The notes under the pieces are model-generated. The model ran no database searches, was not told the DNA's origin, and worked only from the letters and a program-made list of their open reading frames with translations. Below, one piece after another: positions 6,576 through 56,222 of a stretch of 64,000 bases of DNA. The position numbers and the translations under genes are program-made. The DNA is from Cenarchaeum sp. (lineage in GTDB: Archaea > Thermoproteota > Nitrososphaeria > Nitrososphaerales > Nitrosopumilaceae). The stretch's first letter is position 1; every line of letters begins with the position of its first letter. The stretch lies in NCBI GenBank assembly GCA_965242695.1, contig CBDESU010000001.1, positions 640,001 to 704,000 of the forward strand, given 5' to 3'.

Positions 6576-6683
6576 CCTGCCCTACGGGTGCGCCACGGCG
6601 GCCGATGCGACGTGGCATGAGGCACGAACCGGTCTCACACAAGGAGCCTGCCCTACGGGTGCGCCACGGCGGCCGATGCGACG
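6576..6683. repeat. 37-bp direct repeat pair (6576-6612, 6647-6683) around a 34-bp unique insert
   Basis: CCTGCCCTACGGGTGCGCCACGGCGGCCGATGCGACG exactly twice; duplicates the 3' end of the TauE gene. Confidence 0.95.
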
Positions 6684-7459
6684 GCCGCGGCGGCCGCGCT
6701 GCCGAGCACGACGTCGTAGGTTCCCATGAATATCTTGGCGGCGACCACGAACAGGACGCCGGCGACCAGGACTCGCAGGTACGTGTCCCTGACCCTCTTG
6801 GAGAGGCGCGCGCCGAGCATGCCGCCGGCGAACGCGCCGCCCATCATGTACAGGGCGTGCGTGAGGTTCATGTCGCCGAGTATCGCGTGCGCGGCAAGGC
6901 TCGAGGACGAGACGAACAGGAGTATGAACTGCGACGTCGGCGCGGCCCGCCACGCGGCCATTCCCATGACGACGACCAGGAGGGGCATGAAAACGACGCC
7001 GCCGCCGACGCCGAACAGGCTCGACAGGACGCCGGCAAAAAAGCTCGCGCCGGCGGCCATTACCATGACCAGGCCGGCGCGCCTGCGCCTGCCCGCCTGC
7101 CCGGCGCGCCTGCGCAGCAGCATGTACGCGGCGGACGCGACGATCACCATGGCGAAGAAGAACTTGAACATGTCGGGGGATATGTCAGACGAGATGAGCG
7201 CGCCGACTGCGATTCCCGGGACCGCCATGAGGCCTAGCGTGAGCCCCTCCCTGTAGTCGATCCTCTTCTGGCGGTAGTACGATATGGTCGACGACGACGA
7301 GTTTGCCAGTACGGCGAACAGGCTGTTGGTCGCCGCTATCGGGGGCGGGACTCCGGCGAGCGTGAGGACGGGGACGATGATCACGCCGCCGCCGAGGCCG
7401 ACTATGGAGCCGAGGGCGGCCGCGGCGGCGGCCAGGCCGGCCATCCACAGGTCGATCAC
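6653..7459 (-). CDS. Sulfite exporter TauE/SafE family membrane protein
   Basis: GSIVGLGGGVIIVP and SSLFGVGGGVVFMP motifs, multiple TM helices; GTG start with TTTATA at 7482-7487. Confidence 0.9.
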   Translation of the reverse strand: MIDLWMAGLAAAAAALGSIVGLGGGVIIVPVLTLAGVPPPIAATNSLFAVLANSSSSTISYYRQKRIDYREGLTLGLMAVPGIAVGALISSDISPDMFKFFFAMVIVASAAYMLLRRRAGQAGRRRRAGLVMVMAAGASFFAGVLSSLFGVGGGVVFMPLLVVVMGMAAWRAAPTSQFILLFVSSSSLAAHAILGDMNLTHALYMMGGAFAGGMLGARLSKRVRDTYLRVLVAGVLFVVAAKIFMGTYDVVLGSAAAAAVASAAVAHP

Positions 7460-7586
7460 GGCGCGGCCTGCGGGGGGGCCGTATAAACAGCATGCGGGCG
7501 GCGGGCGATGGGGCGGCCGCCGCGGCCTCGGGGCCTCGCGCCTGCCAAGCGAAGCCCGTATATGGAGGGGGGATGCGGCAGGCTGC

Positions 7587-8030
7587 GTGAGCGTTGCCGT
7601 AGGGACAAAAAGGCCGGCGCAGCGGAGCGCGCAGGCCGCATCTGGACTGGAGGCGGGCCGGGCCGGCTCGGCGCTGTCGCAGGAGGCCAGGGGCGACATC
7701 CACGAGGTGCGCGCCGTGCTCAGGGCGCTCATGGAAGATCAGCCGGCGCACGTGATGGCGAAGCTAAGGGCGCGCCTCGATGACCTCTTGGACGCCCGCC
7801 TGGACGCCCGCATAGACGACAACATAGACGCCCGCATAGACGCCCGCATAGACGCCCGCGTGTACGACCACCTAGACGATATCATGGATGCGCGCATGGA
7901 TGAGCGCGCGGCCGGCTTCAGGACCAGCGCGCACGAGGGCGGATACGACATAGTAGAGGTGTACAGGTACGATGTCGCGAGGCACAGCCCGATGTCCGGC
8001 AGCTGGCCGCGCGATCGGGCCTCCAAGTAG
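7587..8030 (+). CDS. Hypothetical protein with DARI tetrapeptide repeats, copy 1
   Basis: Duplicated at 8504..9010; GTG start with a TATA-like box upstream. Confidence 0.6.
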   Translation: MSVAVGTKRPAQRSAQAASGLEAGRAGSALSQEARGDIHEVRAVLRALMEDQPAHVMAKLRARLDDLLDARLDARIDDNIDARIDARIDARVYDHLDDIMDARMDERAAGFRTSAHEGGYDIVEVYRYDVARHSPMSGSWPRDRASK

Positions 8031-8073
8031 GCATCGCATGCGCTGCCAACGCAATCCTTTTGACGGCGTGCGC

Positions 8074-8181
8074 CCCTGCGGAGACTCCTCGCATGCTGGG
8101 CCGTCCCGGCGCGGGCCCTAGAACCGTTCGGAGGGCAGGGCAAGCCCTGCGGAGACTCCTCGCATGCTGGGCCGTCCCGGC
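8074..8181. repeat. 37-bp direct repeat pair (8074-8110, 8145-8181) around a 34-bp unique insert
   Basis: CCCTGCGGAGACTCCTCGCATGCTGGGCCGTCCCGGC exactly twice. Confidence 0.95.
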
Positions 8182-8503
8182 ACTTGATGCTGATGCGCCG
8201 CCTGCCCGCCCATGCCGGCCGGGAGCCCCGCCCACTTTAGGGATCGACCCTAGCTTGCGCCGCCGATCATGCGGCATGCAACGCCGTAGCCCGGCGTGCC
8301 TTGGCATGCCGCCCGATCCGCACCGACGCACCGCCTCACGGTCCAGATGCTTGCGCGAGCCAAGGATGTTGCGATCGGGTTGCTCTGCCCGATGCGATCG
8401 CGCGGGCCGGATGCGGCCTGGCCTTGGCAGCTGCGCGCGTGCGGGCCGGGCCGCGATCTTGCCAAGCGAAGCCCATATATGGAGGGGGGGTGCGGCAGGC
8501 TAC

Positions 8504-9010
8504 GTGAGCGTTGCCGTAGAGACGAAAAGGCCGGCGCAGCGGAGCGCGCAGGCCGCATCCGGACTGGAGGCGGGCCGGGCCGGCTCGGCGCTGTCGCAGG
8601 AGGCCAAGGGCGACATCCACGAGGTGCGCGCCGTGCTCAGGGCGCTTATGGAAGATCAGCCGGCGCACGTGATGGCGAAGCTAAGGGCGCGCCTCGATGA
8701 CCTCTTGGACGCCCGTCTGGACGCCCGCATAGACGACAACATAGACGCCCGCATAGACGCCCGCATAGACGCCCGCATAGACGCCCGCATAGACGACAAC
8801 ATGAACGCTCGCCTAGACGCCCGCATAGACGCCCGCGTGTACGACCACCTAGACGATATCATGGATGCGCGCATGGATGAGCGCGCGGCCGGCTTCAGGA
8901 CCAGCGCGCACGAGGGCGGATACGACATAGTAGAGGTGTACAGGTACGATGTCGCGAGGCACAGCCCGATGTCCGGCAGCTGGCCGCGCGATCGGGCCTC
9001 CTCCAAGTAG
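8504..9010 (+). CDS. Hypothetical protein with DARI repeats, copy 2 (expanded repeat tract)
   Basis: Near-identical to 7587..8030 with extra 12-bp GACGCCCGCATA units. Confidence 0.6.
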   Translation: MSVAVETKRPAQRSAQAASGLEAGRAGSALSQEAKGDIHEVRAVLRALMEDQPAHVMAKLRARLDDLLDARLDARIDDNIDARIDARIDARIDARIDDNMNARLDARIDARVYDHLDDIMDARMDERAAGFRTSAHEGGYDIVEVYRYDVARHSPMSGSWPRDRASSK

Positions 9011-9267
9011 GCATCGCATGCGCGGCCTCTGCACTCCACTTGGCGGCATGCGCGGGGGAATTCCATGCGCACTGTACTCGTCTAGGCACTTGATGCTGGA
9101 GCGCCGCCCGCCGGCCCACACTGGGCGCGAACTCTGCACACTTTGGGGATCAGCCCTACCTTGCGTCGCCGATCATGCGGCATGCAATGCCGCAACCCTT
9201 GCAACTTTGCCGTGGCGCCCGAGCTTGCCGAGCGCATCACCGCGCTAGGAATACACACTGGCATGTT

Positions 9268-11428
9268 TCATATCTTGGCGGCCCTGTCGTACGCGGCGAG
9301 CGCCTCGGCGTGGCGCCCGAGCTTGCCGAGCGCATCGCCGCGCCCGGCATGCCCCGATGCAATCTCAGAGTCGATCTCCACGGCCCTGTCGTACGCGGCG
9401 AGCGCCTCGGCGTGGCGCCCGAGCTTGGAGAGCATTTCGCCGCGCCCGGCATGCCCCGATGCAATCTCAGAGTCGATCTCCACGGCCCTGTCGTACGCGG
9501 CGAGCGCCTCGGCGTGGCGCCCGAGCTTGGAGAGCATTTCGCCGCGCCCGGCATGCCCCGATGCAATCTCCGAGTCGATCTCCACGGCCCTGTCGTACGC
9601 GGCGAGCGCCTCGGCGTGGCGCCCGAGCTTGCCGAGCGCATCGCCGCGCCCTGCATGCGACAGGACATATCCGCCGTCGATCTCCACGGCCCTGTCGTAC
9701 GCGGCGAGCGCCTCGGCGTGGCGCCCGAGCTTGCCGAGCGCATCGCCGCGCCCGGCATTGCCCCGATGCAATCTCCGAGTCGATCTCCACGGCCCTGTCG
9801 TACGCGGCGAGCGCCTCGGCGTGGCGCCCGAGCTTGGAGATCATTTCGCCGCGCCCGGCATGCCCCGATGCAATCTCCGAGTCGATCTCCACGGCCCTGT
9901 CGTACGCGGCGAGCGCCTCGGCGTGGCGCCCGAGCTTGCCGAGCGCATCGCCGCGCCCGGCATGCCCCGATGCAATCTCCGAGTCGATCTCCACGGCCCT
10001 GTCGTACGCGGCGAGCGCCTCGGCGTGGCGCCCGAGCTTGCCGAGCGCATCGCCGCGCCCTGCATGCGACAGGACATATCCGCCGTCGATCTCCACGGCC
10101 CTGTCGTACGCGGCGAGCGCCTCGGCGTGGCGCCCGAGCTTGCCGAGCGCATCGCCGCGCCCGGCATGCCCCGATGCAATCTCCGAGTCGATCTCCACGG
10201 CCCTGTCGTACGCGGCGAGCGCCTCGGCGTGGCGCCCGAGCTTGCCGAGCGCATCGCCGCGCCCGGCATGCGATAGGACGTATCCGGCATCGATCTCCAC
10301 GGCCCTGTCGTACGCGGCGAGCGCCTCGGCGTGGCGCCCGAGCTTGCCGAGCGCATCGCCGCGCCCTGCATGCGACAGGACGTATCCGCCGTCGATCTCC
10401 ACGGCCCTGTCGTACGCGGCGAGCGCCTCGGCGTGGCGCCCGAGCTTGCCGAGCGCATCGCCGCGCCCGGCATGCCCCGATGCAATCTCCGAGTCGATCT
10501 CCACGGCCCTGTCGTACGCGGCGAGCGCCTCGGCGTGGCGACCGAGCTTGGAGAGCATTTCGCCGCGCCCGGCATGCCCCGATGCAATCTCCGAGTCGAT
10601 CTCCACGGCCCTGTCGTACGCGGCGAGCGCCTCGGCGTGGCGCCCGAGCTTGGAGAGCATTTCGCCGCGCCCGGCATGCCCCGATGCGATCCCGGTATCG
10701 ATCTCCACGGCCCTGTCGTACGCGGCGAGCGCCTCGGCGTGGCGGCCGAGCCATGCCAGCGCATCCCCGTTGCATGCTGCTATGACCGACGTCCGTTCGC
10801 CGGGACCGATGCCGTCGCACCGCTTGACGACGGCCTCGTAGCACTCGCGCGGCGGCGGCAGCTGCCGGCTTGCCTCGAACCGCTCGGCCGCCCTGGCCTT
10901 CGACATGTCCATTATGACGAGAGCCTCGGGCCATGCCGCAAGCATTATTCTGGCGAACTCCTCCACCGTCCAATACGAGATGCGACCGTCGATGAGCGCA
11001 TCGGCCATGGCGTGGACGACCGCATTGCGCTCCGGCGTCAGGCGGCCCAGGGCGGCGGCCATCTCCTTGGTGAGGATGCGGCCCATGCCGCACCTGTCGA
11101 GGACTGACCTGATGTCGTCGACCGACGAGATGTTCGTGTCCGCCGCGACGATATCGACCCATTCCATGCTCCTGCTGCGCTCAAAGGTGTCCCGCCGGAC
11201 GACCGCCGCGGCCTTGTCCTCCTCGGGGTGCTCCCTCAGGTAGGCGGCCAGGACGTACCTACATATCTGCTCGATCGCCGTCACAAGCCTGACGACCAGC
11301 ATGTTGAGGTCGTCTGGCTTGCAGCTGCCGAGCAATACGACGAGGCGGTAGAGCCTGTCGAACACCACTACCAGGCCACCGGGCGGCGAGGCTGCCGCCA
11401 TGCGAACGATAAACCACCTGCCGCCCAT
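9268..11428 (-). pseudogene. HEPN-like N-terminal domain plus 15 TPR repeats; 1-bp frameshift near 9758
   Basis: ERNAVVH (Rx4H) motif. 34-aa GRHAEALAAYDRAVEID repeats. Extra T (ggcattg vs ggcatg) splits the ORF. TATAAG at 11450-11455. Confidence 0.75.
9280..10770. repeat. 102-bp coding tandem repeat array (TPR), about 15 units
   Basis: Near-identical 102-bp units with a few alternating variants (SEIASGH/GGYVLSH; DALGK/EMLSK). Confidence 0.95.
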
Positions 11429-11685
11429 GCCCGGCGCCCCGCCGCGCTCCTTATACACCTTGCGGCTCTTGATCCTACCTCCTCCCACAGCGAATCTCCT
11501 GCGGCCGAGGCGCCGGGGCTCCCAGACTCCAGCCCTGTCCGGCGGGGCGGGGCGGGGCGGGGCGGGAAGGAGCGGCTAGCCTGCCGGCCCCCCGCCCTGG
11601 CGCCTCTGCCCCCCCCCCGCCTGCGCCCCTCCCCCCCATCCTCCGCGCCGCCAGACGTATAGCCCCGCCCAGGCGCGCCGCCGCG

Positions 11686-12105: not shown

Positions 12106-12126
12106 CGGGCGGCGGCGCCCCGCGCC

Positions 12127-16534: not shown

Positions 16535-16582
16535 GCTGGGCCCAGGCCGACCTGGGATTAATGGCTGCCGGCGGCCCGCCGG

Positions 16583-29982: not shown

Positions 29983-31287
29983 ATGAATGCCCCTGTCCTG
30001 CGCACGGCGGTAGCAGTTGCGGCCGCCGTTGCCGTCGCACTAGGAGGCGCGGCCGTACAGCCGGCCGAGGCCGCCGTACTGTGGGACCTCGTGGTAGAGG
30101 TCGACGTGGTCAACGCCCCGCTCGCCGAGGGGCAGGGGCCGGCCGTGCGCGGCACGGTGCTCGACCACGCCGGCGACCCCGTGGCCGGCGCAGCGGTGCA
30201 GGTCCGGACGGGCCACGGCGCCGCATCCGTGGTTGCGGCGCCCAACGGGACGTTTGCGCACGAGTTCGGGCCGCAGGCGCTCCTGCCAGGCGAGCACAGC
30301 GTCCATGTCGTGGCCACGGCCTCTTCGAACCGCATGGGGGTGGCAAGCGCCAGCTACCGCGTCGACGGCGACCTGACGCTCTCGTCGCACACGGCGCAGC
30401 TTCTCGCCACGCCCGAGGCGCAGAGGTACCTTGCGGCCGATCCGGCCGCCCTTGCCGGCGACCCGATAGGGATGCGCCTGTACGACTACTACCAGCGGCT
30501 CAGGGCGCAGCATGCGAGCGAAGAGGCCGGGCAGAGGGAGATCGACGGCCGGGCGGCCGAGTTCGACGAGGAGCGCATGATCGCCGACAACAGCACGCGG
30601 GCGGCCCTCGCCGAGCGGCACATGTCGGACGGCACGCTGAGCGGGTCCAGGATGGACTGGTTCCTGGGGAGCCTGGACCCGTCGATCCGCACCGTCGTCG
30701 CGCAGCAGATCAACTTTACGACCGGCGTGTTCGAGAGCGCAAGGGCCGCCATGCAGGAGGTGCTCGCTCGGGGAGGCAGCATAAAGGAGGCCCGCGCGGC
30801 CTACCTAGAGGCGGCGACCGTGCCAAAGAGCGTCATCGAGGACCTGGAGCTCGCCGAGAGGTACGGCGCCTGGTCGATAGTCGGGGGGCTGAACCTGTCG
30901 GCCGCAAGGGGGGAGGAAGCCGAGAACTCGACGGCCCCGCCCGATCCTGCCGACGGCGATGCGGCCGCTCCCACCAACTCGACGTCCCCGCACCTGCCGC
31001 CCTCTCCGGCCCCGTCGACTCCGGCCGCTCCCACCAACTCGACGTCCCCGCACCTGCCGCCCTCTCCGGCCCCGTCGACTCCGGCCGCTCCCACCAACTC
31101 GACGTCCCCGCATCCGCAGCCCCTGCCCGCCGCTCCCGCCAATTCCACCTCGCCGCAGCCCGCCGCTCCGCCTCCCGCCGCCCGAATAGAGGTAGTCCAG
31201 AGCGGGACGACGATCGTGCTCAACATCAACGGCACGGCCACCGAGTTTGTCGTCAACGGGACGAACGTGGTCCAAAAGGGGCCGTAG
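29983..31287 (+). CDS. Secreted hypothetical protein with Ig-like N-terminus and Pro/Ser/Thr 20-aa repeats
   Basis: Signal peptide; VRGTVLDHAGDPVAGAAV; 60-bp repeats at about 30962-31112. Confidence 0.75.
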   Translation: MNAPVLRTAVAVAAAVAVALGGAAVQPAEAAVLWDLVVEVDVVNAPLAEGQGPAVRGTVLDHAGDPVAGAAVQVRTGHGAASVVAAPNGTFAHEFGPQALLPGEHSVHVVATASSNRMGVASASYRVDGDLTLSSHTAQLLATPEAQRYLAADPAALAGDPIGMRLYDYYQRLRAQHASEEAGQREIDGRAAEFDEERMIADNSTRAALAERHMSDGTLSGSRMDWFLGSLDPSIRTVVAQQINFTTGVFESARAAMQEVLARGGSIKEARAAYLEAATVPKSVIEDLELAERYGAWSIVGGLNLSAARGEEAENSTAPPDPADGDAAAPTNSTSPHLPPSPAPSTPAAPTNSTSPHLPPSPAPSTPAAPTNSTSPHPQPLPAAPANSTSPQPAAPPPAARIEVVQSGTTIVLNINGTATEFVVNGTNVVQKGP

Positions 31288-32778: not shown

Positions 32779-32922
32779 GACTCTACGACTCTACGACTCT
32801 ACGACTCTACGACTCTACGACTCTACGACTCTACGACTCTACGACTCTACGACTCTACGACTCTACGACTCTACGACTCTACGACTCTACGACTCTACGA
32901 CTCTACGACTCTACGACTCTAC
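32779..32922. repeat. Perfect 8-bp microsatellite (GACTCTAC)x18
   Basis: 144 bp counted directly. Confidence 0.97.
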
Positions 32923-33042
32923 TATACACCTAGGTCCGCACTGTTCTGACCTCGACACGCTGCCAGCAGGCGACAATCTGGCACAGGGCCGCGGGTGGTC
33001 GAACGTTCGTGACGGCACGAAGCCGCTGGGGGGTGGCCCAGC

Positions 33043-39047: not shown

Positions 39048-39052
39048 GGCGA

Positions 39053-43140: not shown

Positions 43141-43146
43141 GATGCA

Positions 43147-44814
43147 TCACGCTGCCCTCGCGGGCGCAGATGCGGCCGCGGCCTTGCGCCGGCAGCCCTT
43201 GAACTGCGCACTCCCCTCCGCCATGCAGTTGACAAAGGTGAGGTTCTTCTTGAGCATCCAAAAGACGATGCGGAGCAGCTTGTTCACCGCCGCTATCATG
43301 GCCTTCTTTGCGGGCATCCTCTCGCACAGCCTCTCGTAGTACCTCGTGATGTCCGAGTCGACGTGCCCGACGTGCACAAGCACGGCCTCGCACAGTATCC
43401 ACCTGACGATCTTGCTTCCCGTCTTGGTTATGCGCCCGTGCTTTACAATGTCGGCAGAGCTCCTGTCCGACGGGACCAGCCCAAAGTACGGCGCCAGGGC
43501 GTACGGGCTGCTAAACCGCTCTATGGGGCCTATCCATGCCGCCAGGGCAAGCGCGATGAAGTTGCCAAAGCCCGGAAAGGACAAGAGTAGCTGCGCGGCG
43601 GGGTTGGCCGCCACCATGTCCCTTATCCGCAGGTCGGTCTTTATCACCTGGTCGTCGATGCCCGAGATCATGTCCAGGCACTGGTTGATCCTCCACTCGC
43701 CGAGCCTGCGGAGGTTCGAGACGAACGTGTCCGACCACTTTGCCCCCTCGACCTTGATGGCCTTTTGCAGAAGGATGGCCTGGATGAACACCTTGTACTT
43801 TGCCCTCGCCCGCGTCAGGCGGGCCCTGTGCGACGTGGCCTCCCTCTCCTTCACCGTCTTGTCGTCTGGGACGTAGCACGGGGGGATGCTCTTTATGCGC
43901 AGCAACTCGGCAAGATTCCTGGCATCGACCCTGTCGTTCTTGTTCTTGGACTTGGCGATCAGCGCAGTCTGCAGCGGGTTTGACAGGATCATGTCGAATC
44001 CCATCGCCTCTATGAACCGGTAGACCGCGTACCACACCGACGACGACTCGACAACGCACCTGGTCCTGTCGGGCGGCAGCCCCGCGAAGTACGACCTGAT
44101 GGCATCGAAGCTGTTGATGATTTTGGCCTCCTCTACGATCGTCCCAGCCTCGTCGGATACGGCGATCTGCAGCGTGCGCTTGTGCAGGTCTACCCCCACG
44201 TAGAACATTCCCTCCGACACAGCCGTTCTCTCCATTTCAGCGACCTCCTTTGCCGTCAGGGCCCTGGTGCTTTTCCTGGCCGCTGCCCGCGCCCTTTCCC
44301 CCTTTGCCACAATCCTTTTCTTCATGCCACTGACATTCCGTGACGCCGCGGAACTGCCGCCCCTCTTGGGCTTGGCCGAGGGCCGAGGCTTGGGCTTGGC
44401 CGCTGCCCGCGCCCTTTCCCCCTTTGCCACAATCCTTTTCTTCATGCCACTGACATTCCGTGACGCCGCGGAACTGCCGCCCCTCTTGGGCTTGGCCGAG
44501 GGCCGAGGCTTGGGCTTGGCCGCTGCCCGCGCCCTTTCCCCCTTTGCCACAATCCTTTTCTTCATGCCACTGACATTCCGTGACGCCGCGGAACTGCCGC
44601 CCCTCTTGGGCTTGGCCGAGGGCCGAGGCTTGGGCTTGGCCGAGGGCCGAGGCTTGGGCTTGGCCGCTGCCCGCGGCCTTGCTTCCGTACCTGTGCGTCG
44701 TTGCACGGCCGCGCCCTCGCGGGGGGCCATGTGTATCTTTGCGACGTCGGCCTCGCCGTTCCCAGCGCCCGACTTGGCACGCCCACCGTCTGAATTGCGT
44801 TTCTGGCCCCTCAC
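43147..44814 (-). CDS. IS110-family DEDD transposase/recombinase with a basic repeat-rich N-terminal extension
   Basis: YVGVDLHK, VVESS, KNDRVDA (DEDD); FPGFG..GLVPSDRSS..GRITKTG C-terminal domain. Confidence 0.93.
   Translation of the reverse strand: MRGQKRNSDGGRAKSGAGNGEADVAKIHMAPREGAAVQRRTGTEARPRAAAKPKPRPSAKPKPRPSAKPKRGGSSAASRNVSGMKKRIVAKGERARAAAKPKPRPSAKPKRGGSSAASRNVSGMKKRIVAKGERARAAAKPKPRPSAKPKRGGSSAASRNVSGMKKRIVAKGERARAAARKSTRALTAKEVAEMERTAVSEGMFYVGVDLHKRTLQIAVSDEAGTIVEEAKIINSFDAIRSYFAGLPPDRTRCVVESSSVWYAVYRFIEAMGFDMILSNPLQTALIAKSKNKNDRVDARNLAELLRIKSIPPCYVPDDKTVKEREATSHRARLTRARAKYKVFIQAILLQKAIKVEGAKWSDTFVSNLRRLGEWRINQCLDMISGIDDQVIKTDLRIRDMVAANPAAQLLLSFPGFGNFIALALAAWIGPIERFSSPYALAPYFGLVPSDRSSADIVKHGRITKTGSKIVRWILCEAVLVHVGHVDSDITRYYERLCERMPAKKAMIAAVNKLLRIVFWMLKKNLTFVNCMAEGSAQFKGCRRKAAAASAPARAA
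44281..44664. repeat. Three identical 120-bp tandem repeats plus a 24-bp duplication in the transposase 5' region
   Basis: 44281-44400, 44401-44520 and 44521-44640 are identical. Confidence 0.95.
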
Positions 44815-49288: not shown

Positions 49289-49373
49289 GCGGGACGTGCG
49301 CGAGCGCCCGTTAAGTGCGTTGCCGGCGCCGCCCCTACGATGATATACGCGCCCCGCGCGGCGCGCCGCAGCG

Positions 49374-49616: not shown

Positions 49617-49849
49617 CGCGGCGGCCCGCGCCGGCCCGCCTGCGCGCCACGTCCCCTGCCGAGGGCCCCTCGGCGATGCCTCCTGCTCCGCCGCCTGCCG
49701 GGGCGGGCCCCGGCGCAAGGTGCGGCCCCTCCCTGCCGGCCCAAGCGCGATGCCTCCTCCGCCCCGGCCCTGGCCGCGCACCGCCCCCTCGCGAGGCGCC
49801 ATGCGGCGGCCGGCGCGCGGCCGAGGGAAAACAAGAGAGTCTGCTGGGG

Positions 49850-51124
49850 TTACTGCACGCGCAGTATTCCCTGCGATATGAGGTACTGCAGCGAGTTTAT
49901 GTACTCGGCATCCGACACCATTCCGTCGGCCCACCACCGGGCGGTCTGCTTTATCCACTCGGGGATGGCGGCCGCACCGCCGCCGCCGCCCTCCTGCTCG
50001 GGCGCGTCCCAGAGGACCTCGCCGTCGTACGTGGCCCTCTGCAGGCCGGCCTGGCCTATGGCCACGACCTTGTCCGAGAGGGGCACGTACAGGAGGTCGG
50101 GCGCGAACGCCTGCCCCTCGGTGAGCATCCAGTTGATCAGGTGCACTACGGCCTTTGCCTCTTCCCTCGAGTCGGCCACGCCGCTCATCTCCTCGTAGAG
50201 GAGCAGGTACGTGAACGTTGCCATCGGGTAAGAGTCGGGCCCCGGCGCGTTGACCATCGTGACCGCGCTCCAGTCGCCCTCGGCGGCCGGAAGGCCGCTG
50301 TCTGCGAGCCCGCCGGACGCGGCCGCGAGCGACTCGAGGGTCGGCTCGACGAACCCTGTGCCGTCGCCGTTCTCGACGTGGGCGTAGTTGATGCCGGACT
50401 TGAACGCGTACGCGAGCTCGATGTAGCCGATCGCATAGTCCGACGTCTTTACGACGCCGGCGACGCCCTCGTTGCCGGCGGCCCCGCGGCCGGCCGGCCA
50501 CTGCACGCTCTTGCCCTTGCCGACCTCTTCGTCAAAGCCGGCGCTGACCGTCGTGAGATAGTCGGTGAATACGAACGTCGTGCCCGACCCGTCCGAGCGG
50601 TACACCGTAGTGATGGCCCTGTCCGGCAGGTCTGTGCCGGGGTTGAGCTCCCGTATGCGCTCGTCGTCCCAGCGGTCGATCTTGCCGAGGAATATGTCGG
50701 CGATCACGCCGCCGGTGAGCCTCAGCCCGTTCTCGCGGAACTCGGGCAGGTTGTAGGCGACGACGACGCCGCCGATCGTCTCGGGGATGTGCAGCGTGCC
50801 GGGGGCCTGCTCGGCCTCGGACGCCTTGAGCGGCTTGTCCGAGGCGGCGAACGAGACCGTCCGTTCTATGTGCTGCTTGATGCCGCCGCCGCTGCCGATC
50901 GACTGGTAGTTGAGGTTTACGTTGTCGTAGAGGCTGTTGTACTCGACGCGCCACAGGTCGATCAGCGGGAACGGGAACGATGCCCCGGCCCCGTTGATCG
51001 CAAAGGTGGCGCCCGCGTCTGGCTCGTCGGGGGCGCCGGCGGACTGCGCGTGGGCCGCAGCGGGCGGCAGCGCGGCCAGCAGGGCCCCGACCAGGAGGAG
51101 GCTTGCCGTCTTTGTCCTTGTCAT
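49850..51124 (-). CDS. pstS: Phosphate ABC transporter substrate-binding protein
   Basis: GAGASFP, YQSIGSGGG, RSDGSGTT; C-terminal IPEWIK..A.WWADG domain. Confidence 0.95.
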   Translation of the reverse strand: MTRTKTASLLLVGALLAALPPAAAHAQSAGAPDEPDAGATFAINGAGASFPFPLIDLWRVEYNSLYDNVNLNYQSIGSGGGIKQHIERTVSFAASDKPLKASEAEQAPGTLHIPETIGGVVVAYNLPEFRENGLRLTGGVIADIFLGKIDRWDDERIRELNPGTDLPDRAITTVYRSDGSGTTFVFTDYLTTVSAGFDEEVGKGKSVQWPAGRGAAGNEGVAGVVKTSDYAIGYIELAYAFKSGINYAHVENGDGTGFVEPTLESLAAASGGLADSGLPAAEGDWSAVTMVNAPGPDSYPMATFTYLLLYEEMSGVADSREEAKAVVHLINWMLTEGQAFAPDLLYVPLSDKVVAIGQAGLQRATYDGEVLWDAPEQEGGGGGAAAIPEWIKQTARWWADGMVSDAEYINSLQYLISQGILRVQ

Positions 51125-51299
51125 TGCCGGCGCGGCGGCTGGGCCGTATATGGCGCCGCCGGGTGTAGATTACGGGCCTGCGCATAGGCACCGTTTCGCT
51201 ATATGCCCCTATTGTCGGCGCCGGCGCCGGGCAGTCGCCGTCCGAGCGCGCCGATGCCGCCGCGTTAGGCTTTACATAGCGCTGCCGGCGCGGCGCCGC

Positions 51300-51776
51300 G
51301 TGCAGCCGCGGCAGCAGCGCCCGTACTACCTGGTCAACTGGGGCAGGGCCGAGGCCATGGCGGCCGAGCTGTGGGCCAGGGCGGCCGATGCGGCGGGCGG
51401 CGCGGGGCGGCTGGCGTGCATCGCGACCGCGTCGCGCGGCGGCATGGTCCCCGCCCGCCTGCTGGCAGACGCATCCGGGATCGACCGCATCCTGGTCGAT
51501 GTCAAGTCAGTGCCGGCCGGCGCGCTGTTCGTCGACGACATCTACGACACGGGCGGCACGTTCAGGGATATCGCCGGCAGGGCCGAGGACCCGGGGTCGC
51601 TCGTGTACGCGACGCTCTTTGCAAGGCGCGGACGCGCCGAGACGCCGCCGCAGCTAGTGTTCGCCGAGGAGACCGCCGGCGCCGAGCATGTGGTGTTTCC
51701 GTGGGAGATGGGCGAGCACAGGCGGGAGGTCTCGCCGCGGCCGCGGCCGTTGCCGGCTCCAGGCCAGGCCGGCTAG
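51300..51776 (+). CDS. Type I phosphoribosyltransferase
   Basis: SRGGMVPA, LFVDDIYDTGGT and VVFPWE; GTG start with TTTACATA upstream. Confidence 0.85.
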   Translation: MQPRQQRPYYLVNWGRAEAMAAELWARAADAAGGAGRLACIATASRGGMVPARLLADASGIDRILVDVKSVPAGALFVDDIYDTGGTFRDIAGRAEDPGSLVYATLFARRGRAETPPQLVFAEETAGAEHVVFPWEMGEHRREVSPRPRPLPAPGQAG

Positions 51777-51859
51777 CGGCGGGCGGTTGCATGTTGACGA
51801 CTCCCTGCGCGCATGCCTTGGTGAGGGGGCACTGGCCGGCCTAGAAAAATGGTGCACGA

Positions 51860-52252
51860 TCACGATCTAGGCCGTAGCCAATCCCACTCGGGCCCGACTG
51901 TACCTCGCCAGAACTGTGCGCAAAATCCCTCCCAGAACTCGTCAAAGAACCTTGTCGCATACTCCCACATGGCGTAAAGGTCGTTGTCCATCGCATCCAA
52001 CGCGGTGCTGCCGTCGCTGGACCTGTAGGTGTACGGCATCGTCTGGCGCAGGATTGACTCAATGGCGTGTTTTCTGGCACTGGCCGGCATGCCTCCGCAG
52101 TACTGTATATAGTCCAAGGCTAGGTTGTCCTTTGTCCGGCCTACCTCCTTTTTCCACTCCTCAAAATATGCGCTAGGCTTCCATCCGGGAACGGGCGCGA
52201 CGCTGGCGGGGGCCACCCACTGCGCGCCCCGCCCCACTCGCTGTCCGGCCAT
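51860..52252 (-). CDS. Hypothetical aromatic-rich protein (lower GC)
   Basis: Protein-like composition; AT-rich box upstream of ATG 52252; start uncertain. Confidence 0.5.
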   Translation of the reverse strand: MAGQRVGRGAQWVAPASVAPVPGWKPSAYFEEWKKEVGRTKDNLALDYIQYCGGMPASARKHAIESILRQTMPYTYRSSDGSTALDAMDNDLYAMWEYATRFFDEFWEGFCAQFWRGTVGPEWDWLRPRS

Positions 52253-52780
52253 CGGTGCTGGCGGCATCCGCGGGATACTAAAGGCCGGGCTTTGCGGCAA
52301 CAACTCCGCGCGCGCCTGCCCAGGGGGCCAGATATTGCCGCAGGTGTGTGTGGAGGGGGGGGAGAGGGCGCGATGATCGCAGGCGCTTCGGCCGCCGTCC
52401 GGCGACCCCGTGCATGGGCCGCTGCCGCCCTGCCGCCCTGCGAACCGGCCTCGGCCCCGCACAGGCTCGCTCTGCATGGGGTGGGGCCTGCCTGGGCGCA
52501 GATGTGGCGGAATCGATCCCGCCTGCGATCGCCTCCGCACCGCAGTCTCCCTGGGAGGCTTCGCCGCCTCCCCCCCCCTGCCGCATGCCGAAATGCCGCA
52601 TGCGGCCGGCACTGCCTAGGTGCCGCGCAGCACATGTGAGCTCCTTCTGCCCTGCGTTCCTGCCCGCCCGGCCGTCAGATGCCCCGTCGATTCCCTGCGG
52701 CGCCGGACTTTGCGGATCCCGGGCGCCAGCCATCTGCCCCGCCGTAGACTTTTATTCGCTCCGCGGCCCCCCGCGGCCGC

Positions 52781-54463
52781 ATGGGCCACGACTACTGCGG
52801 CATACGGCGCCGCGTGCGCGCGGCCCGCAGGCTCGTAATACGGGGAACGACGGCGGCCGGCTCGGGGCACCCCGGCGGCTCGTTCTCGATGGCCGAGATC
52901 GTCGGCGTGCTGCTGTTCGGCGGGCGCCTCAGGCACGATCCGTCAAACCCCCTGTGGGAGGAGCGCGATCGCCTCGTCCTCTCAAAGGGGCACGCGGCCC
53001 CGGGCCTGTTCGCCAGCCTGGCCGTGGCCGGCTACATCGACGAGTCCGAGATCGACACGCTGCGCAGCCTCGGCAGCCGCCTGCAGGGCCACCCCGACCT
53101 AAAGTGCCCCGGCGTAGAGTTCTGCGGCGGCTCGCTCGGAATAGGCCTGTCGTACTCGATAGGCGCGGCCCTTGCGGCGCGGCTCGACGGCCGCCCGACC
53201 CGCGTGTACGCCATACTCGGCGACGGCGAGACCGACGAGGGGCAGGTGTGGGAGGCCGCCATGGCCGCCTCAAAGTTCGCCGTCGACAACCTCACCGCCA
53301 TCCTCGACCGCAACTTCATCCAGCAGGACTCTTACACCGAGGATGTGATGCCGCTCGACCGGCGCCTTGCGGACGGCGAGGACCTGTCGGCGATGTGGAA
53401 GGATCCCTCGCGGTGGCGCACGGCCGACAAGTGGCGCGCGTTCGGGTGGAACGTCATAGAGGTCGACGGCCACCGCATCGAGCAGCTAGAGTCGGCGCTG
53501 CGCGGCGCCGCGGCCCACCGCGGCTCGCCGACGATGATCATAGCCCGCACGATAAAGGGAAAGGGGGTCGAGCACATGGAGGACAACCCAAAGTGGCACG
53601 GCAAGGCGGCCGACCCCGACGTGGCGCCCGTAATCGACGCCGAGCTCGGCTGCCAGTTCTCGGTATGCCCGTCGATCACGGCAGGCGACATGGGCGACCT
53701 GCCCGGCGAGGTGCGCCGCTGCGAGGACGGCAGGGCCGACATGATACACATCGACGTGATGGACGGCAGGTTCGTACCCGCCACCACGTTCGGGGCCGAA
53801 AAGGTCGCCGAGCTGCGCGCCCTCACCGAGCTGCCGTTCGACACGCATCTGATGGTGGAAGACCCCGTCCGCCAGGCGGCCCTGCATGCGGACGCCGGCA
53901 GCGACATCGTGACCGTCCACGCCGAGGCGTGCGGCGGCGAGGCCGCGTTTGGCGAGGTGCACGACCGGCTCAGGTCGGCGCGCGTCGGCGTCGGGCTTGC
54001 CGTCAACCCGGGGACCGACCTCCCCGAGTGGGCCGCGCGGTTTGCGCCCACTCTAGACCAGGTGATCGTAATGTCCGTCGAGCCGGGCAGGTCGGGGCAG
54101 CGGTACATCGAGGCCATACACGCAAAGACGGCGCGCATATGCGCCGAGCTAGAGCGGGCCGGCTTTGCGGGGACGGTAGAGGCCGACGGCGGCGTGACTG
54201 CCGGGAATGCGGGCGCCTGCCTTGCCGACGGGGCCCGCGCGTTCGTCGGCGGCAGCGCGATCATTGGGCAGGCCGACGTGCGCGCCGCCGTCCGGTCGTT
54301 CCGAAACGCGCTGCTCGACGCCCGGCGCACGCTGCTCTTGCGGCGCGCGCGCGAGCTCGGCGGCGATGCGCTCGTCGAAAAGTGGGTCGGACTGCACGGG
54401 GCCGGCCCGCGCGTCGAGCGCCTGCGGCGGCTGGCCGAAAGCGGGGAGGCGGCCGGCAGGTGA
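52781..54463 (+). CDS. Transketolase N-terminal subunit fused to ribulose-phosphate 3-epimerase
   Basis: SGHPGG, LSKGH and GDGE motifs, followed by HIDVMDGRFVP, DTHLM, MSVEPG and ADGG. Confidence 0.92.
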   Translation: MGHDYCGIRRRVRAARRLVIRGTTAAGSGHPGGSFSMAEIVGVLLFGGRLRHDPSNPLWEERDRLVLSKGHAAPGLFASLAVAGYIDESEIDTLRSLGSRLQGHPDLKCPGVEFCGGSLGIGLSYSIGAALAARLDGRPTRVYAILGDGETDEGQVWEAAMAASKFAVDNLTAILDRNFIQQDSYTEDVMPLDRRLADGEDLSAMWKDPSRWRTADKWRAFGWNVIEVDGHRIEQLESALRGAAAHRGSPTMIIARTIKGKGVEHMEDNPKWHGKAADPDVAPVIDAELGCQFSVCPSITAGDMGDLPGEVRRCEDGRADMIHIDVMDGRFVPATTFGAEKVAELRALTELPFDTHLMVEDPVRQAALHADAGSDIVTVHAEACGGEAAFGEVHDRLRSARVGVGLAVNPGTDLPEWAARFAPTLDQVIVMSVEPGRSGQRYIEAIHAKTARICAELERAGFAGTVEADGGVTAGNAGACLADGARAFVGGSAIIGQADVRAAVRSFRNALLDARRTLLLRRARELGGDALVEKWVGLHGAGPRVERLRRLAESGEAAGR

Positions 54464-55461
54464 GCGGGGGGGATGCCGGCGCCGGCGCCATGGGCGACAT
54501 GCGCGCCGAGTACGGCAGGGCGCTCGTAGAGATCGGCGAGGCGAACCCGAGTATAGTCGTGCTCGGCGCCGACACGACCGACTCGCTAAAGACGTCGGCG
54601 TTCGGAAAGAGGTTTCCCGACCGCTTCTTCAACGTCGGAATAGCCGAGGCCAACATGGTGTCCGTGGCGGCCGGCCTGGCCGCCTCTGGCAAGACCGCCT
54701 TTGCGAGCACGTACGCCATATTCATGCCGGGCAGGGCCGTCGACCAGATACGCAACGCCGTGTGCTACCCGTCGAGGGAGGGGAGGCGCGGCCTGGACGT
54801 AAAGCTCGTCGCCTCTCACGGCGGCCTGTCTGTCGGCGCCGACGGCGGCTCGCACCAGCAGCTAGAGGACGTCGCGACGATGCGGGCGGTCCCGAACATG
54901 CGCGTTGTGGTGCCCGCCGATGCGGCATCGGCAGGCTCGCTCGCCCGCGCGATCGCATCCGAGTACGGCCCGTTCTACATGCGCATGTGCCGCTCAAAGG
55001 TGCCGCGCGTGCACGGGGAAGGCGCTGCGGCCGCGCTGCGGCCGGGCCGCGCCGCCGTCGTCCGCGACGGGTCGGACTGCACGATCGCCGCCTGCGGCAT
55101 CACCGTATCCATGGCCCTCGAGGCGGCCCGCTCCCTGCAGGCCGAGCGGTCGATATCGTGCCGCGTCCTGGACATGTTCAGCGTAAAGCCGCTCGACGCG
55201 GCCGCCGTCGGGCGGGCCGCGGCCGAGACGGCGGGGATCGTCGCGTGCGAGGAGCACAGCGTGATCGGCGGCCTGGGGTCGGCCGTGGCCGAGGCCGCGT
55301 CCGAGTCGCGCCCGACGAGGGTGCTGCGCGTCGGCGTCGCCGACTCGTTCGGCGAGTCGTGCCGCGACCCCGAGGTGCCGCGCCTGCTCGCCAAGCACGG
55401 CATCGATCCCGTTAATATAGCCGCCAGGGCGGCCGAGGTCGTGGAGGCTGCCCGGCGGTGA
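54460..55461 (+). CDS. Transketolase C-terminal subunit
   Basis: FFNVGIAEANM, DGGSHQ and EEHSVIGGLGS; start is GTG 54460 or ATG 54490. Confidence 0.92.
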   Translation: MSGGDAGAGAMGDMRAEYGRALVEIGEANPSIVVLGADTTDSLKTSAFGKRFPDRFFNVGIAEANMVSVAAGLAASGKTAFASTYAIFMPGRAVDQIRNAVCYPSREGRRGLDVKLVASHGGLSVGADGGSHQQLEDVATMRAVPNMRVVVPADAASAGSLARAIASEYGPFYMRMCRSKVPRVHGEGAAAALRPGRAAVVRDGSDCTIAACGITVSMALEAARSLQAERSISCRVLDMFSVKPLDAAAVGRAAAETAGIVACEEHSVIGGLGSAVAEAASESRPTRVLRVGVADSFGESCRDPEVPRLLAKHGIDPVNIAARAAEVVEAARR

Positions 55462-56114
55462 AGATATTCCTGGACACGGCCAACCTGGCCGAGATACGAC
55501 GGTACAACGACATGGGCCTGATCGACGGGATCACGACCAACCCGTCGCTGCTCTCGCGGGAGGGCGGCGATCCGGCCGCCGTCATGAGGGAGATCACGTC
55601 GATAGTCTCGGGCGACATCAGCCTAGAGGTCGTCAGCACGGGCCATGCGGAGATGGTCGAGGAGGGGAGGCGCCTGCGCGGGTACGGGGACAACGTGGTA
55701 GTAAAGTGCCCAATGACGGCCGACGGCCTGCGCGCGTGCAGAACGCTCGTCTCCGAGGGGATACCCGTGAATGTCACGCTCGTATTCTCGGCAAACCAGG
55801 CCCTGCTGGCCGCAAAGGCCGGCGCAAGGTACGTCAGCCCCTTCATCGGCAGGCTCGACGACATCGGCGCCGACGGGCTCGGGCTCGTCGAGCAGATACT
55901 AGAGGTGTTTGCCAACTACGACTTTGGCACGCAGGTGCTGGTCGCAAGCGTCCGGCATCCCGCGCATGTGGTAGGCGCAGCCGAGATGGGAGCCGATGTG
56001 GTGACGCTGCCGCCTGCCGTGCTCGGCAAGATGCTCTCGCACCCGCTCACCGACTCTGGCCTGGCCGCGTTCCTGTCGGACTGGAAAAAGCTGAAGGCCG
56101 GCGCGGCGCGGTAG
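55458..56114 (+). CDS. tal: Transaldolase / fructose-6-phosphate aldolase
   Basis: IFLDTAN, GITTNPS, VVVKCP and YVSPFIGRLDD. Confidence 0.93.
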   Translation: MKIFLDTANLAEIRRYNDMGLIDGITTNPSLLSREGGDPAAVMREITSIVSGDISLEVVSTGHAEMVEEGRRLRGYGDNVVVKCPMTADGLRACRTLVSEGIPVNVTLVFSANQALLAAKAGARYVSPFIGRLDDIGADGLGLVEQILEVFANYDFGTQVLVASVRHPAHVVGAAEMGADVVTLPPAVLGKMLSHPLTDSGLAAFLSDWKKLKAGAAR

Positions 56115-56222
56115 GGCGCCCGGCGCCCGGCCTGGTTCGCATCCCATCTGCCAGAGTCCTGGTGGCAGCGCAGGCGCCGGCATCCGGCGCCCGGCGCCCG
56201 GCCTGGTTCGCATCCCATCTGC
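56115..56222. repeat. 37-bp direct repeat pair (56115-56151, 56186-56222) around a 34-bp unique insert
   Basis: GGCGCCCGGCGCCCGGCCTGGTTCGCATCCCATCTGC exactly twice. Confidence 0.95.

Follow-up and report, generated by a model that had tools for sequence, protein, structure and literature searches.

Spacer-sized inserts between repeat-length target duplications in a Cenarchaeum genome, very probably placed off the array by its own type I-G Cas4/1-Cas2

Introduction

Which enzyme writes short, unrelated fragments into ordinary DNA with the dimensions of a CRISPR unit? The question is raised by a 64,000-nucleotide stretch of a Cenarchaeum sp. genome (here called the window), in which a repeat search and direct reading recovered three 37-nt direct repeat pairs with 100% identity, a start-to-start spacing of 71, and inserts of 34 nt. 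A preliminary description of the sequence had reported exact 37-bp repeats, unrelated 34-bp inserts, and a 71-bp period, all of which were confirmed at the three sites. We argue that each structure very likely arose by full-site integration of a single prespacer into DNA other than a CRISPR repeat, catalyzed by the type I-G Cas4/1-Cas2 that this genome encodes, which supports the CRISPR-like integration proposed in that description.

Geometry and gene context of the three sites

The sites and the adjoining genes are listed below; no strand is assigned to target copies and inserts, and X numbers denote public sequencing runs.

6576..6612: site 1, first target copy (37 nt, family D14), a duplicate of the TauE 3' end that is missing from the empty allele in X2 and X10
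6613..6646: site 1 insert, spacer-like, 34 nt, with 32/34 identity to the other replicon
6647..6683: site 1, second target copy, holding the TauE stop codon (6653-6655) and last codons
6653-7732, minus strand: TauE/SafE family gene (PF01925, E 6.4e-53), its 3' end duplicated by the site 1 event and the gene left intact
8074..8110: site 2, first target copy (37 nt, family D15; 100% identity, spacing 71)
8111..8144: site 2 insert, 34 nt, no donor identified
8145..8181: site 2, second target copy, identical to 8074..8110
55458..56114, plus strand: transaldolase/fructose-6-phosphate aldolase (TAL_FSA) family gene (PF00923, E 1.2e-58), ending directly before site 3
56115..56151: site 3, first target copy (37 nt, family D16; upstream flank ...GGTAG/G)
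56152..56185: site 3 insert, 34 nt, no donor identified
56186..56222: site 3, second target copy, identical to 56115..56151

Chance is excluded as the source of exact 37-mers at a single fixed spacing. The repeats of the three sites, compared in register, have merely 10 to 12 of 37 positions in common, and the inserts 7 to 12 of 34; the repeats are mutually unrelated, and so are the inserts. With two copies per unit and a different repeat at each site, these structures are not a canonical CRISPR array. At each window site, the repeat as counted may include one border base of ambiguous assignment, in which case the units would measure 36 + 35 instead of 37 + 34.

Site 1 lies between the TauE gene and a convergent Pro_CA_2 gene (6141-6518), and its second copy was confirmed to be the TauE 3' end, comprising the stop codon and about nine final codons. 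Site 2 begins 44 nt past the end of an open reading frame (7284-8030) that has no Pfam match, and is located between two tandem paralogous gene copies; near 8990-9060, the paralogous copy has a single diverged segment that resembles the site 2 repeat and contains no insert. Site 3 starts immediately after the TAL_FSA stop codon.

Empty and filled alleles in public sequencing runs

The comparison with public sequencing runs covered sites 1 and 2. At site 1, contigs of X2 (1553 nt) and X10 (561 nt) join position 6575 to position 6647, with exactly 71 letters skipped and 37 letters ambiguous. This empty allele has a single repeat copy and lacks the insert. The filled form was recovered as a 94-nt unitig (6583-6676) with 0 differences in both X7 and X1. 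X1 is a sponge metagenome from a study other than that of X7, and the empty form comes from two further studies. Site 1, at least, is therefore polymorphic among natural populations. The filled form of site 2 was found only in X7, possibly the sample from which the assembly derives. X1 and X2 also have contigs that skip this site; these were considered as an empty allele and rejected, as they resemble the paralogous copy B. The read support and empty alleles anticipated in the preliminary description were thus obtained for site 1 alone of the two sites compared, the skip at site 2 being that of a paralogue. Position 7472 was omitted in all four runs, which makes a 1-base indel error in the assembly likely at that position.

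These alleles bear on whether the 71-bp additions might be an assembly or library artefact, absent from the organism. The perfection of all three window sites would fit such an origin, as would the probable indel error nearby. However, an artefact does not account for the identical filled site in an independent study, for approximately 25 sites elsewhere in the genome whose copies differ by one to three substitutions and hence show age, or for the same geometry in two other species at sites of their own. The artefact reading is already contradicted for site 1 and has almost no probability overall.

Off-array sites across the genome

Exact direct repeats outside the array were counted at L of at least 25 and periods of 15 to 400, with tandem cases removed beforehand. 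Periods 70-73 held 45 of the 149 isolated non-tandem repeats, and the remaining 382 periods together held 104, or 0.27 per period, so that the genome-wide peak predicted from the 37/34 geometry was found. When up to 3 mismatches per 34 were allowed, 47 pairs fell at periods 67-75 and 3 at other periods between 55 and 90. The off-array total is roughly 70 sites: about 47 exact ones and about 25 with slight decay (1 to 3 substitutions between copies). Approximately 5 of the exact sites are within or next to tandem repeats and might not have arisen by integration. The earlier expectation that three events in 64 kb imply many more was borne out. The sites occur on both replicons, and C2:173431-173609 is a possible two-spacer site.

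Across the 47 off-array sites the period averages 71.51, compared with 71.98 in the array; period 72 accounts for 40% of them (37% in the array) and period 71 for 28% (23% in the array), and the two distributions nearly coincide. The length of the ectopic duplication has a mode of 36 and an apparent range of 33 to 39, the window sites being at 37. Where a donor fixes the borders, the duplicated length runs from 34, at one site, to about 37 and is thus not fixed. Predicted coding sequence fully encloses 7 of the 47 sites, against 24.3 +/- 3.2 expected, a depletion.

Local duplication of a 71-bp unit by slipped replication or unequal crossing-over, with no foreign insertion, may hold for a handful of filtered or ambiguous sites: C1:1840307, C1:1531462, and C2:173917 are inside real tandem repeats, and the first insert at C2:173431 starts like the sequence past the third repeat copy. 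However, tandem cases had been filtered out before the count, and slippage does not explain why the peak is at the exact CRISPR period. It is contradicted for the donor-bearing sites, since the site 1 empty allele contains a single copy of the repeat and none of the insert, the site 1 insert matches the other replicon, and five more inserts have distant donors. As a general explanation slippage is very improbable.

The type I-G CRISPR-Cas locus

The window itself contains no cas gene, as the preliminary description had noted; the single CRISPR-Cas locus of the genome lies outside it and is of type I-G (formerly I-U). Its composition is that of type I-G: a Cas4/Cas1 fusion, Cas2, a Cas3 with the helicase before the HD domain (the HD match is under the Pfam cutoff, at 20.2 versus 23.1 bits), and GSU0053 and GSU0054 family proteins; no Pfam family matched the 245-amino-acid open reading frame at the cas5/6 position. 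The array contains 330 identical 36-bp repeats and a memory of 329 spacers of 34 to 38 bp (mode 36), and its leader ends in ...GCAGG. The predicted cas1 gene and CRISPR array of matching size are both present in the genome, outside the window.

The genome has a single match to the Cas1 family, and this protein is fused to Cas4 and adjoins Cas2. The fusion is 653 amino acids long (PF01867, E 4.5e-87; PF01930, E 1.1e-14), and among solved structures its best match is 7mi4, the Cas4/Cas1 fusion of Geobacter (E 3e-145). Residues D176, K191, and E475, which correspond in the alignment to D87, K102, and E380 of the Geobacter protein (the residues mutated in PMC6547450), are conserved. Judged from sequence, Cas4/1 and Cas2 appear intact, with the catalytic residues present.

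Inserts, donors, and target preference

The possibility that the inserts could be traced to other DNA was realized by six donors within the same genome. Five belong to the 47 exact sites (32/32, 32/34 at window site 1, 36/37, 37/37, and 30/32) and one to a decayed site (34/34). The site 1 insert is 32/34 identical to G000:C2:854240-854273 on the other replicon, and X1, X2, and X10 also contain contigs of this donor locus, as loose ends. The site 2 insert had no further match in the genome and 0 exact matches in viral_contigs, and the site 3 insert had no further match in the genome and 0 exact matches in metagenome_contigs and viral_contigs. Self-derived inserts make up about 11% of ectopic inserts versus 0.6% of those in the array (Fisher p = 4e-4). 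A common PAM had been suggested as a feature to look for, and the TTN motif was found on either side of 0 of the 6 donors, a small sample. In this feature at least, the events depart from canonical acquisition.

The idea that targeting is independent of a repeat consensus held in part. The duplicated targets are not repeat-like, their mean best identity to the canonical repeat being 13.98/36 against a null of 13.35 +/- 0.26. However, their borders are not arbitrary: the duplication starts with G/C at 44 and ends with G/C at 43 of the 47 sites, and GG directly flanks it on one or both sides at 22 of 47 sites, compared with 8.7 +/- 2.6 in the null (maximum 18 in 300 sets). The flank motif is weak, at 4.20 bits versus 2.72 +/- 0.21 in a null run, with orientations picked by optimization; its GG matches the ...CAGG end of the leader.

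The missing TTN, which is expected of prespacers selected by Cas4/1, and the dissimilarity of the targets to the repeat could suggest some other ruler-type integrase in place of the CRISPR adaptation module, such as a casposase, a second Cas1-like protein, or an unknown enzyme. However, the sole Cas1-family match of the genome is the CRISPR-linked fusion, duplication and insert lengths track the distribution of the array itself, and the peak recurs in two relatives that carry Cas4/1 and is lacking from a sample without Cas1. Casposons are Cas1-solo transposons with a casposase gene of their own, terminal inverted repeats, duplications of about 14 to 15 bp, and kilobases of cargo. They resemble the present sites in that a Cas1-family integrase produces a target site duplication, but the genome encodes no second Cas1, and its inserts are about 35 bp long, lack terminal inverted repeats and genes, and are flanked by duplications of about 36 bp. 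The window sites are not casposons. Another integrase is on these grounds very unlikely, and the enzyme, which the preliminary description had left possibly unknown, appears from the single Cas1 match and the array-matching geometry to be the ordinary type I-G adaptation module.

Related genomes

Two sister genomes carry Cas4/1 together with long arrays of 36-bp repeats, at least 230 in G004 and at least 279 in G002. In G004, 7 of 21 direct repeats in a 380-kb sample fall at periods 71-73, and in G002, 9 of 33 in a 360-kb sample fall at periods 70-73, whereas the congener G001 has no Cas1 match and 0 of 13 repeats in the peak (400-kb sample). The geometry thus co-occurs with the cas locus among these relatives, and the scars of the sister species occupy places of their own. 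One ectopic insert in G002 includes 17 nt of the canonical repeat of that genome.

The insert in G002 is the one observation in favor of the scars being decayed former CRISPR arrays or relocated array pieces. Against this, no copy of the canonical repeat was found beyond the array anywhere in the genome with up to 7 substitutions allowed, each site has as its repeat a different local sequence, such as the gene 3' end at site 1, and the similarity of the targets to the canonical repeat is close to the null value. An origin from decayed arrays therefore has hardly any likelihood. Geometry and co-occurrence point instead to Cas4/1-Cas2 as the probable catalyst.

Proposed mechanism and significance

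In integration by Cas4/1-Cas2, two staggered strand transfers would occur about 36 bp apart, measured by the same ruler as on the true 36-bp repeat. Gap repair would then duplicate the approximately 36 bp lying between the cuts and leave a fragment of about 35 bp between the two copies, giving a period of 70 to 73 bp. Surviving scars are mostly noncoding, probably because an insertion of about 71 bp in a gene would usually be lost, and the intergenic bias may accordingly reflect selection. As the duplicated DNA is ordinary local sequence without the hairpin of the repeat, the inserts are probably not made into crRNA and are probably neutral scars.

We hypothesize, at somewhat less than even odds, that, in this lineage of large-genome sponge-associated ammonia-oxidizing archaea, the integrase is a constant source of insertional mutation throughout the genome, writing PAM-less and often self-derived fragments into G/C-bordered sites on both replicons. 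If so, the approximately 70 surviving scars would equal a fifth of the on-array memory and would constitute a natural record of naive adaptation unfiltered by interference. They would also represent a measurable cost to fitness of maintaining CRISPR and a seedbed for new arrays, for which the possible two-spacer site would be a candidate.

Off-target integration by Cas1-Cas2 has so far been mainly experimental, with overproduced proteins, and the dozens of natural events of varied ages in this genome and two sister species, with presence/absence polymorphism, form a rare natural record. They provide a natural data set on the target rules of type I-G (the ruler of about 36 bp, the G/C borders, and the GG flank) and an unfiltered view of prespacers, with a self-derived excess and donors that lack a PAM. 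They also bear on the insertional mutagenesis cost of CRISPR adaptation, the survivors being depleted from coding DNA. Polymorphic sites could serve as strain markers for uncultured sponge symbionts, and in annotation, solo repeat-insert-repeat units should not be labeled mini-CRISPR arrays or tandem repeats.

Comparison with known systems

The phenomenon is not of a new kind, as experimental precedent exists in E. coli. There, off-target ("noncanonical") integration by the type I-E system leads to neo-CRISPR loci (Nivala, Shipman, and Church 2018, as cited in 10.1101/148544, PMC7054753, and PMC6698737). According to the portions of these sources available to us, such integration can spawn new arrays, with circumstantial evidence in two other species, and whether it is common in nature is called unclear in 10.1101/148544. 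As in the present genome, E. coli Cas1-Cas2 places a spacer-sized fragment off the array and duplicates repeat-sized ordinary DNA, but the accounts available describe rare events with overproduced adaptation proteins. The scars described here are natural, number about 70 per genome, are polymorphic in the wild, recur in sister species, and are associated with an archaeal type I-G Cas4/1 fusion. We found no published report of off-array integration at this natural scale, the natural examples of Nivala 2018 being known to us through citing papers.

The Cas4/1-Cas2 system of Geobacter sulfurreducens (type I-U/I-G) shares with the present one the Cas4/Cas1 fusion with conserved catalytic residues, a predominant spacer length of 36 bp, and a repeat ending in AGC (PMC6547450). 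However, TTN-flanked prespacers are selected in 50 to 80% of acquisitions by the Geobacter protein (PMC6547450), compared with none of the six donors here, and the integration described in the available parts of PMC6547450 and PMC10504553 is on the array. Ectopic acquisition in Streptococcus thermophilus likewise occurs away from the leader-proximal repeat, but its target, in the text available, is still a true internal CRISPR repeat (PMC7999890), whereas the targets here are nonrepeat DNA on both replicons. For Pyrococcus furiosus Cas1-Cas2, full-site non-CRISPR integration is described where G/C lie one repeat length apart (PMC6698737, as available in part). [quoted passage not shown]

Three repeat-insert-repeat units in the window

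At three places in the window a perfect direct repeat brackets an unrelated insert. The sequence and a repeat finder, which returned them as three two-copy families, agree exactly with the 37/34 geometry reported in the preliminary description, and these are the sole off-array units of this kind, here called ectopic sites, within the 64 kb.

Repeat copies of the three window sites (window coordinates; every pair 37 nt, 100% identity, start-to-start distance 71, insert 34 nt)
Site 1: 6576-6612 and 6647-6683
Site 2: 8074-8110 and 8145-8181
Site 3: 56115-56151 and 56186-56222

Pairwise agreement is 10-12 of 37 positions among the repeats and 7-12 of 34 among the inserts, so the sequences are unrelated to one another, as had been described. 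Site 1 lies between convergent genes, one of which is the TauE gene (6653-7732, minus strand, PF01925). Its second repeat copy contains the TauE stop codon and final codons, which confirms the earlier identification of one repeat with this gene end and makes the first copy the duplicate of the TauE 3' end. Site 2 sits between two paralogous gene copies arranged in tandem, 44 nt beyond the open reading frame 7284-8030, which matches no Pfam family. A transaldolase/FSA-family gene (PF00923, 55458-56114) ends immediately before site 3, whose first base follows the stop codon.

The window also holds other repeats. A tandem duplication of ~917 bp (about 7559-8475 and 8476-9392) carries a gene that contains 12-bp (DARI-type) repeats; here two public sequencing runs, X2 and X10, have contigs that "go back 917", and the copy number of the duplication may differ between strains. 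At 9268-10798, 13-15 copies of a 102-bp tandem repeat encode 34-residue TPR-like repeats (...GRGDALGKLGRHAEALAAYDRAVEID...) in the minus-strand open reading frames 9268-9771 and 9467-11488. Near 9777 a spacing of 205 rather than 204 interrupts the frame, which means either a split gene or an indel in the assembly at that point. A single base at 7472, in the 5' part of the TauE reading frame, is absent from four runs (X7, X1, X2, and X10) and probably reflects one erroneous extra base in the assembly consensus.

Short-period repeats in the window
2746-2785: 10-bp period
2834-2905: 36-bp period
30962-31141: 60-bp period
32779-32930: perfect 8-bp microsatellite, (GACTCTAC) ~19 times
44277-44680: 120-bp period
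62438-62797: 9-bp period

Ectopic sites form a sharp genome-wide peak

The window spans C1:640001-704000 of an assembly that comprises 3.89 Mb in two contigs (C1 and C2) with 67-68% G+C. Its SSU rRNA scores 1450 bits with the archaeal model vs 1086 with the bacterial model, the genome encodes an archaeal AmoA, and the public runs containing the window stretch carry labels of sponge metagenomes or of two coded organisms; the host is therefore a sponge-associated ammonia-oxidising archaeon.

When exact direct repeats were scanned genome-wide and sorted by length and spacing, a single very large CRISPR array (C1:1072688-1096404) emerged. We removed the array and every pair in which 9-mers of the pair's own repeat recur in the insert or flanks, a sign of tandem repetition; the flank filter was added for this count. 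This left 149 isolated exact direct repeats of at least 25 nt at periods of 15-400, and 45 of them fell at periods 70-73; the other 382 periods held 104, or 0.27 each. When up to 3 mismatches in 34 were permitted, there were 47 pairs at periods 67-75 vs 3 at the remaining periods between 55 and 90. The many further events that had been anticipated from the window alone are thus present. Our working list holds 47 exact sites (26 on C1 and 21 on C2; length 33-40, period 68-75), about 5 of which lie in or beside tandem repeats and are hence doubtful; this list comes from the looser version of a low-complexity filter, of which the stricter version kept 44 of 54 sites. It also holds 26 decayed sites with 1-3 substitutions between the copies, or ~25 or fewer given that they include the microsatellite C1:149043 and two low-complexity cases. 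The total is roughly 70 ectopic sites, about one per 55 kb, and the periods of the exact sites follow those of the array.

Period distribution of the 47 exact ectopic sites and of the array
Period 70: ectopic 9%, array 9%
Period 71: ectopic 28%, array 23%
Period 72: ectopic 40%, array 37%
Period 73: ectopic 15%, array 20%

Five of the ~73 listed sites (C1:1055699, 1059971, 1104054, 1119652, and 1122007) lie at most 50 kb from the array, on one side or the other, where ~1.9 would be expected if sites were evenly spread (Poisson p ~0.04), a possible proximity effect. One ectopic unit occurs twice, 1.4 kb apart and with an identical insert (C2:21121 and C2:22546), the second copy having 2 substitutions between its repeats; in this pair integration came first and segmental duplication later.

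A type I-G CRISPR-Cas locus with a Cas4/Cas1 fusion

The array consists of 330 repeats of 36 bp, 325 of them identical, with spacers of 36 (121), 35 (77), 37 (66), 34 (30), and 38 (28) nt and a few other lengths. No copy of this repeat was found outside the array in the whole genome with up to 7 substitutions permitted. The sole Cas1-family match genome-wide adjoins the array and is a 653-amino-acid Cas4/Cas1 fusion, followed by Cas2; across the array lie Cas3 together with GSU0053- and GSU0054-family proteins, a gene make-up that is type I-G (formerly I-U). The preliminary description had advised looking for a cas1 gene and an array with 37-bp repeats; both gene and array exist, with one Cas1 only, but the repeat is 36 bp long.

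The fusion's best relative among solved structures is its Cas4/Cas1 counterpart from Geobacter sulfurreducens (7mi4, E 3e-145), and the residues aligned to Geobacter D87, K102, and E380 are all conserved. In the Geobacter study, mutating these residues abolishes PAM selection or integration (PMC6547450). Among the 80 loci listed for Cas4/1 relatives from the genome_contigs collection, all are ≤48% identical and close relatives are not included. In the minus-strand reading the array repeat ends ...ATTGAAGC, and AGC is given as the repeat-derived PAM position in the Geobacter study (PMC6547450). Together with decayed repeats at the array's low-coordinate end and the leader's last bases, ...GTCGCAGG in minus-strand reading (the real leader ends ...CAGG), this repeat end places the leader at the cas2 end.

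Congeners with and without Cas1

Two of four congener genomes encode the Cas4/1 fusion, G004 at 79% and G002 at 53% identity, and no Cas1-family match was found in the congeners G001 and G003.

Non-tandem direct repeats in three congeners (partial-genome samples; the relatives are kin and not independent trials)
G004: Cas1 present; at least 230 copies of the same 36-bp repeat as in the present genome; 380 kb sampled; 7 of 21 repeats at periods 71-73
G002: Cas1 present; at least 279 copies of a variant 36-bp repeat; 360 kb sampled; 9 of 33 repeats at periods 70-73
G001: no Cas1 found; 400 kb sampled; 0 of 13 repeats at periods 70-73, one at period 69

At one ectopic site in G002 (C1:110117, 36/73), the insert includes 17 nt of the CRISPR repeat of G002 itself and some sequence next to it, so this prespacer was taken from the array itself. 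The Cas-bearing congeners have genomes of 3.2-3.9 Mb vs 1.8-2.0 Mb for the Cas1-less ones. A coding mask of stop-to-stop open reading frames that reach 300 nt and have high GC3, which is crude and not a gene prediction, covers 53-56% of the present genome. The size gap and low coding cover may reflect genome expansion with much noncoding and repeated DNA.

Filled and empty alleles in public sequencing runs

Logan contigs from four runs belonging to four studies were compared over window positions 6200-8500; X7 is possibly the source sample, and X1 is a sponge metagenome from another study. The filled allele of site 1, carrying the insert and both target copies, is supported in X7 and X1 by a 94-nt unitig (6583-6676) that shows no differences and follows a path specific to the filled form. 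In X2 and X10, contigs of 1,553 and 561 nt join 6575 to 6647, skipping exactly 71 letters, of which 37 fit either side, and their flanks are close to the window (1-9 other letters in X2, 0-3 in X10). These contigs are the empty allele of site 1, and the independent support and empty counterpart sought for such insertions were therefore both found. The best other match to the site 1 region in the genome is 68% identical, so it has no close paralogue.

The filled form of site 2 was found in X7 only. In this region X1 has 31 letters in place of 8048-8148, and X2 skips 204 with 127 letters between; we dropped these contigs as empty alleles, as the 31 letters better match the window's own paralogous copy B. 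Copy B lacks an insert and contains a single diverged segment resembling the repeat, which fits, weakly, an insertion at site 2 that postdates the gene duplication. The nearest genome, G004 (77-78% identical), was also set aside as a source of empty alleles, since intergenic alignments around sites 1 and 3 are too diverged for a clean 71-bp gap; the site 1 segment ...CCCTACGGGTG... occurs once only in the aligned stretch, a weak hint of an empty allele.

Origin of the inserts

Near-full-length distant matches in the same genome were found for 5 of the 47 exact-site inserts, and one more came from a search of 23 of the 26 decayed sites.

Ectopic inserts and their donors
C1:281167: donor C1:1526874, 32/32
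Window site 1: donor C2:854240-854273, 32/34
C1:1412333: donor C2:706045, 36/37
C2:678358: donor C2:579013-578977, 37/37
C2:1502087: donor a tandem repeat on C1, 30/32
C2:535451 (decayed): donor match 34/34

Apparent donors for C2:21121, which match a paralogous copy of the entire site including its flanks, and for C1:1840307, within a repeated gene, were set aside. The proposal that inserts derive from other DNA therefore holds for these six sites, including site 1, but no donor was found for sites 2 and 3: neither insert has a second match in the genome, and exact-match scans, which miss diverged donors and may not cover near-identical records, gave 0 matches for both in viral_contigs and 0 for site 3 in metagenome_contigs. 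At the site 1 donor locus, contigs of X1, X2, and X10 occur as loose ends at both insert borders, indicating that the donor is present whether site 1 is filled or empty. At sites with donor-defined borders, inserts measure 37 nt and duplications 34 or 36 nt, so the off-target ruler is not perfectly rigid.

Genome matches are more frequent among ectopic inserts (near-full-length in 5/47) than among array spacers (full in 2/329; Fisher p = 4e-4), as would be expected if the expressed array is cleared of self-targeting spacers and silent scars can keep them. A common PAM, which had been thought worth seeking, did not emerge, TTN preceding the protospacer in 0 of 6 donors on either strand. The Geobacter study reports TTN on 50-80% of new spacers and its loss in Cas4-domain mutants (PMC6547450). 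The six donors suggest that PAM-less prespacers are the ones going off-target. Two array spacers match the host perfectly, A10 and A84 counted from the leader (C1:975632-975669 and C2:698844-698878). In leader orientation, both protospacers are followed by TAA on the 3' side and lack a TTN upstream. This pair (n = 2) would fit PAM-selected fragments inserted flipped, in a harmless orientation.

Target choice and survival of scars

The preliminary description held that targets are independent of a repeat consensus. This stands insofar as the duplicated segments resemble the canonical repeat (13.98/36) barely more than the null (13.35 +/- 0.26), but the targets are not featureless. Their G+C is 75.5% vs 68% for the genome, the first base is G or C in 44 of 47 sites and the last in 43 of 47, and at the eleven sites of exactly 36 nt all 22 borders are G/C. 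In 22 of 47 sites one or both flanks have GG directly next to the duplication, compared with 8.7 +/- 2.6 at random places (maximum 18 in 300 sets), and a motif with optimised orientation reaches 4.20 bits vs 2.72 +/- 0.21 in 60 null sets. Sites wholly outside the coding mask number 37 of 47 (random places 20.1 +/- 3.3) and those wholly inside it 7 of 47 (24.3 +/- 3.2). This scarcity could reflect either selection against genic insertions or an enzyme preference for intergenic DNA.

A probable mechanism: ordinary chemistry at the wrong address

The preliminary description attributed the window units to an integrase, Cas1-like or otherwise, acting outside an array. Our results support this interpretation and supply a candidate: the units are very probably off-target integrations by the genome's own type I-G Cas4/1-Cas2. 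Ordinary Cas1-Cas2 chemistry at the wrong address is the best-supported reading. The Cas4/1-Cas2 complex, carrying a prespacer of ~35 bp, would attack both target strands ~36 bp apart, and gap filling would then copy the ~36 bp between the cuts onto both sides of the insert, giving target-insert-target. The scars differ in age, some being perfect and some having 1-3 substitutions, and site 1 is polymorphic, which points to a continuing process. At C2:173431-173609 there are three copies, the third with 3 substitutions, and a second integration round at one ectopic site is possible; the case is ambiguous because the first insert begins like the sequence after the third copy. crRNA processing of ectopic units seems unlikely, since the duplicated sequences do not have the repeat's hairpin.

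Comparison with known systems

The kind of event is already known. According to passages citing Nivala et al. 2018, off-target integration spawns new arrays in E. coli overproducing Cas1-Cas2, with circumstantial evidence in two other species. Our search, made chiefly among freely available papers, found no report of natural genome-wide off-array integration, including in sponge archaea. The target choice seen here, with G/C borders and a GG flank as at the leader end, resembles that of Pyrococcus furiosus Cas1-Cas2 in vitro, for which the study describes off-target full-site integration at G or C one repeat length apart, with junction-like bases (PMC6698737). Unlike the E. coli work as conveyed by those citing passages, the present case is a natural setting with many events per genome. 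It differs further in that host samples vary in whether site 1 is filled, sister species share the geometry, the system is of the I-G subtype with a Cas4/1 fusion in an archaeal host, and the donors show no PAM. The finding is thus of clear interest for CRISPR adaptation research.
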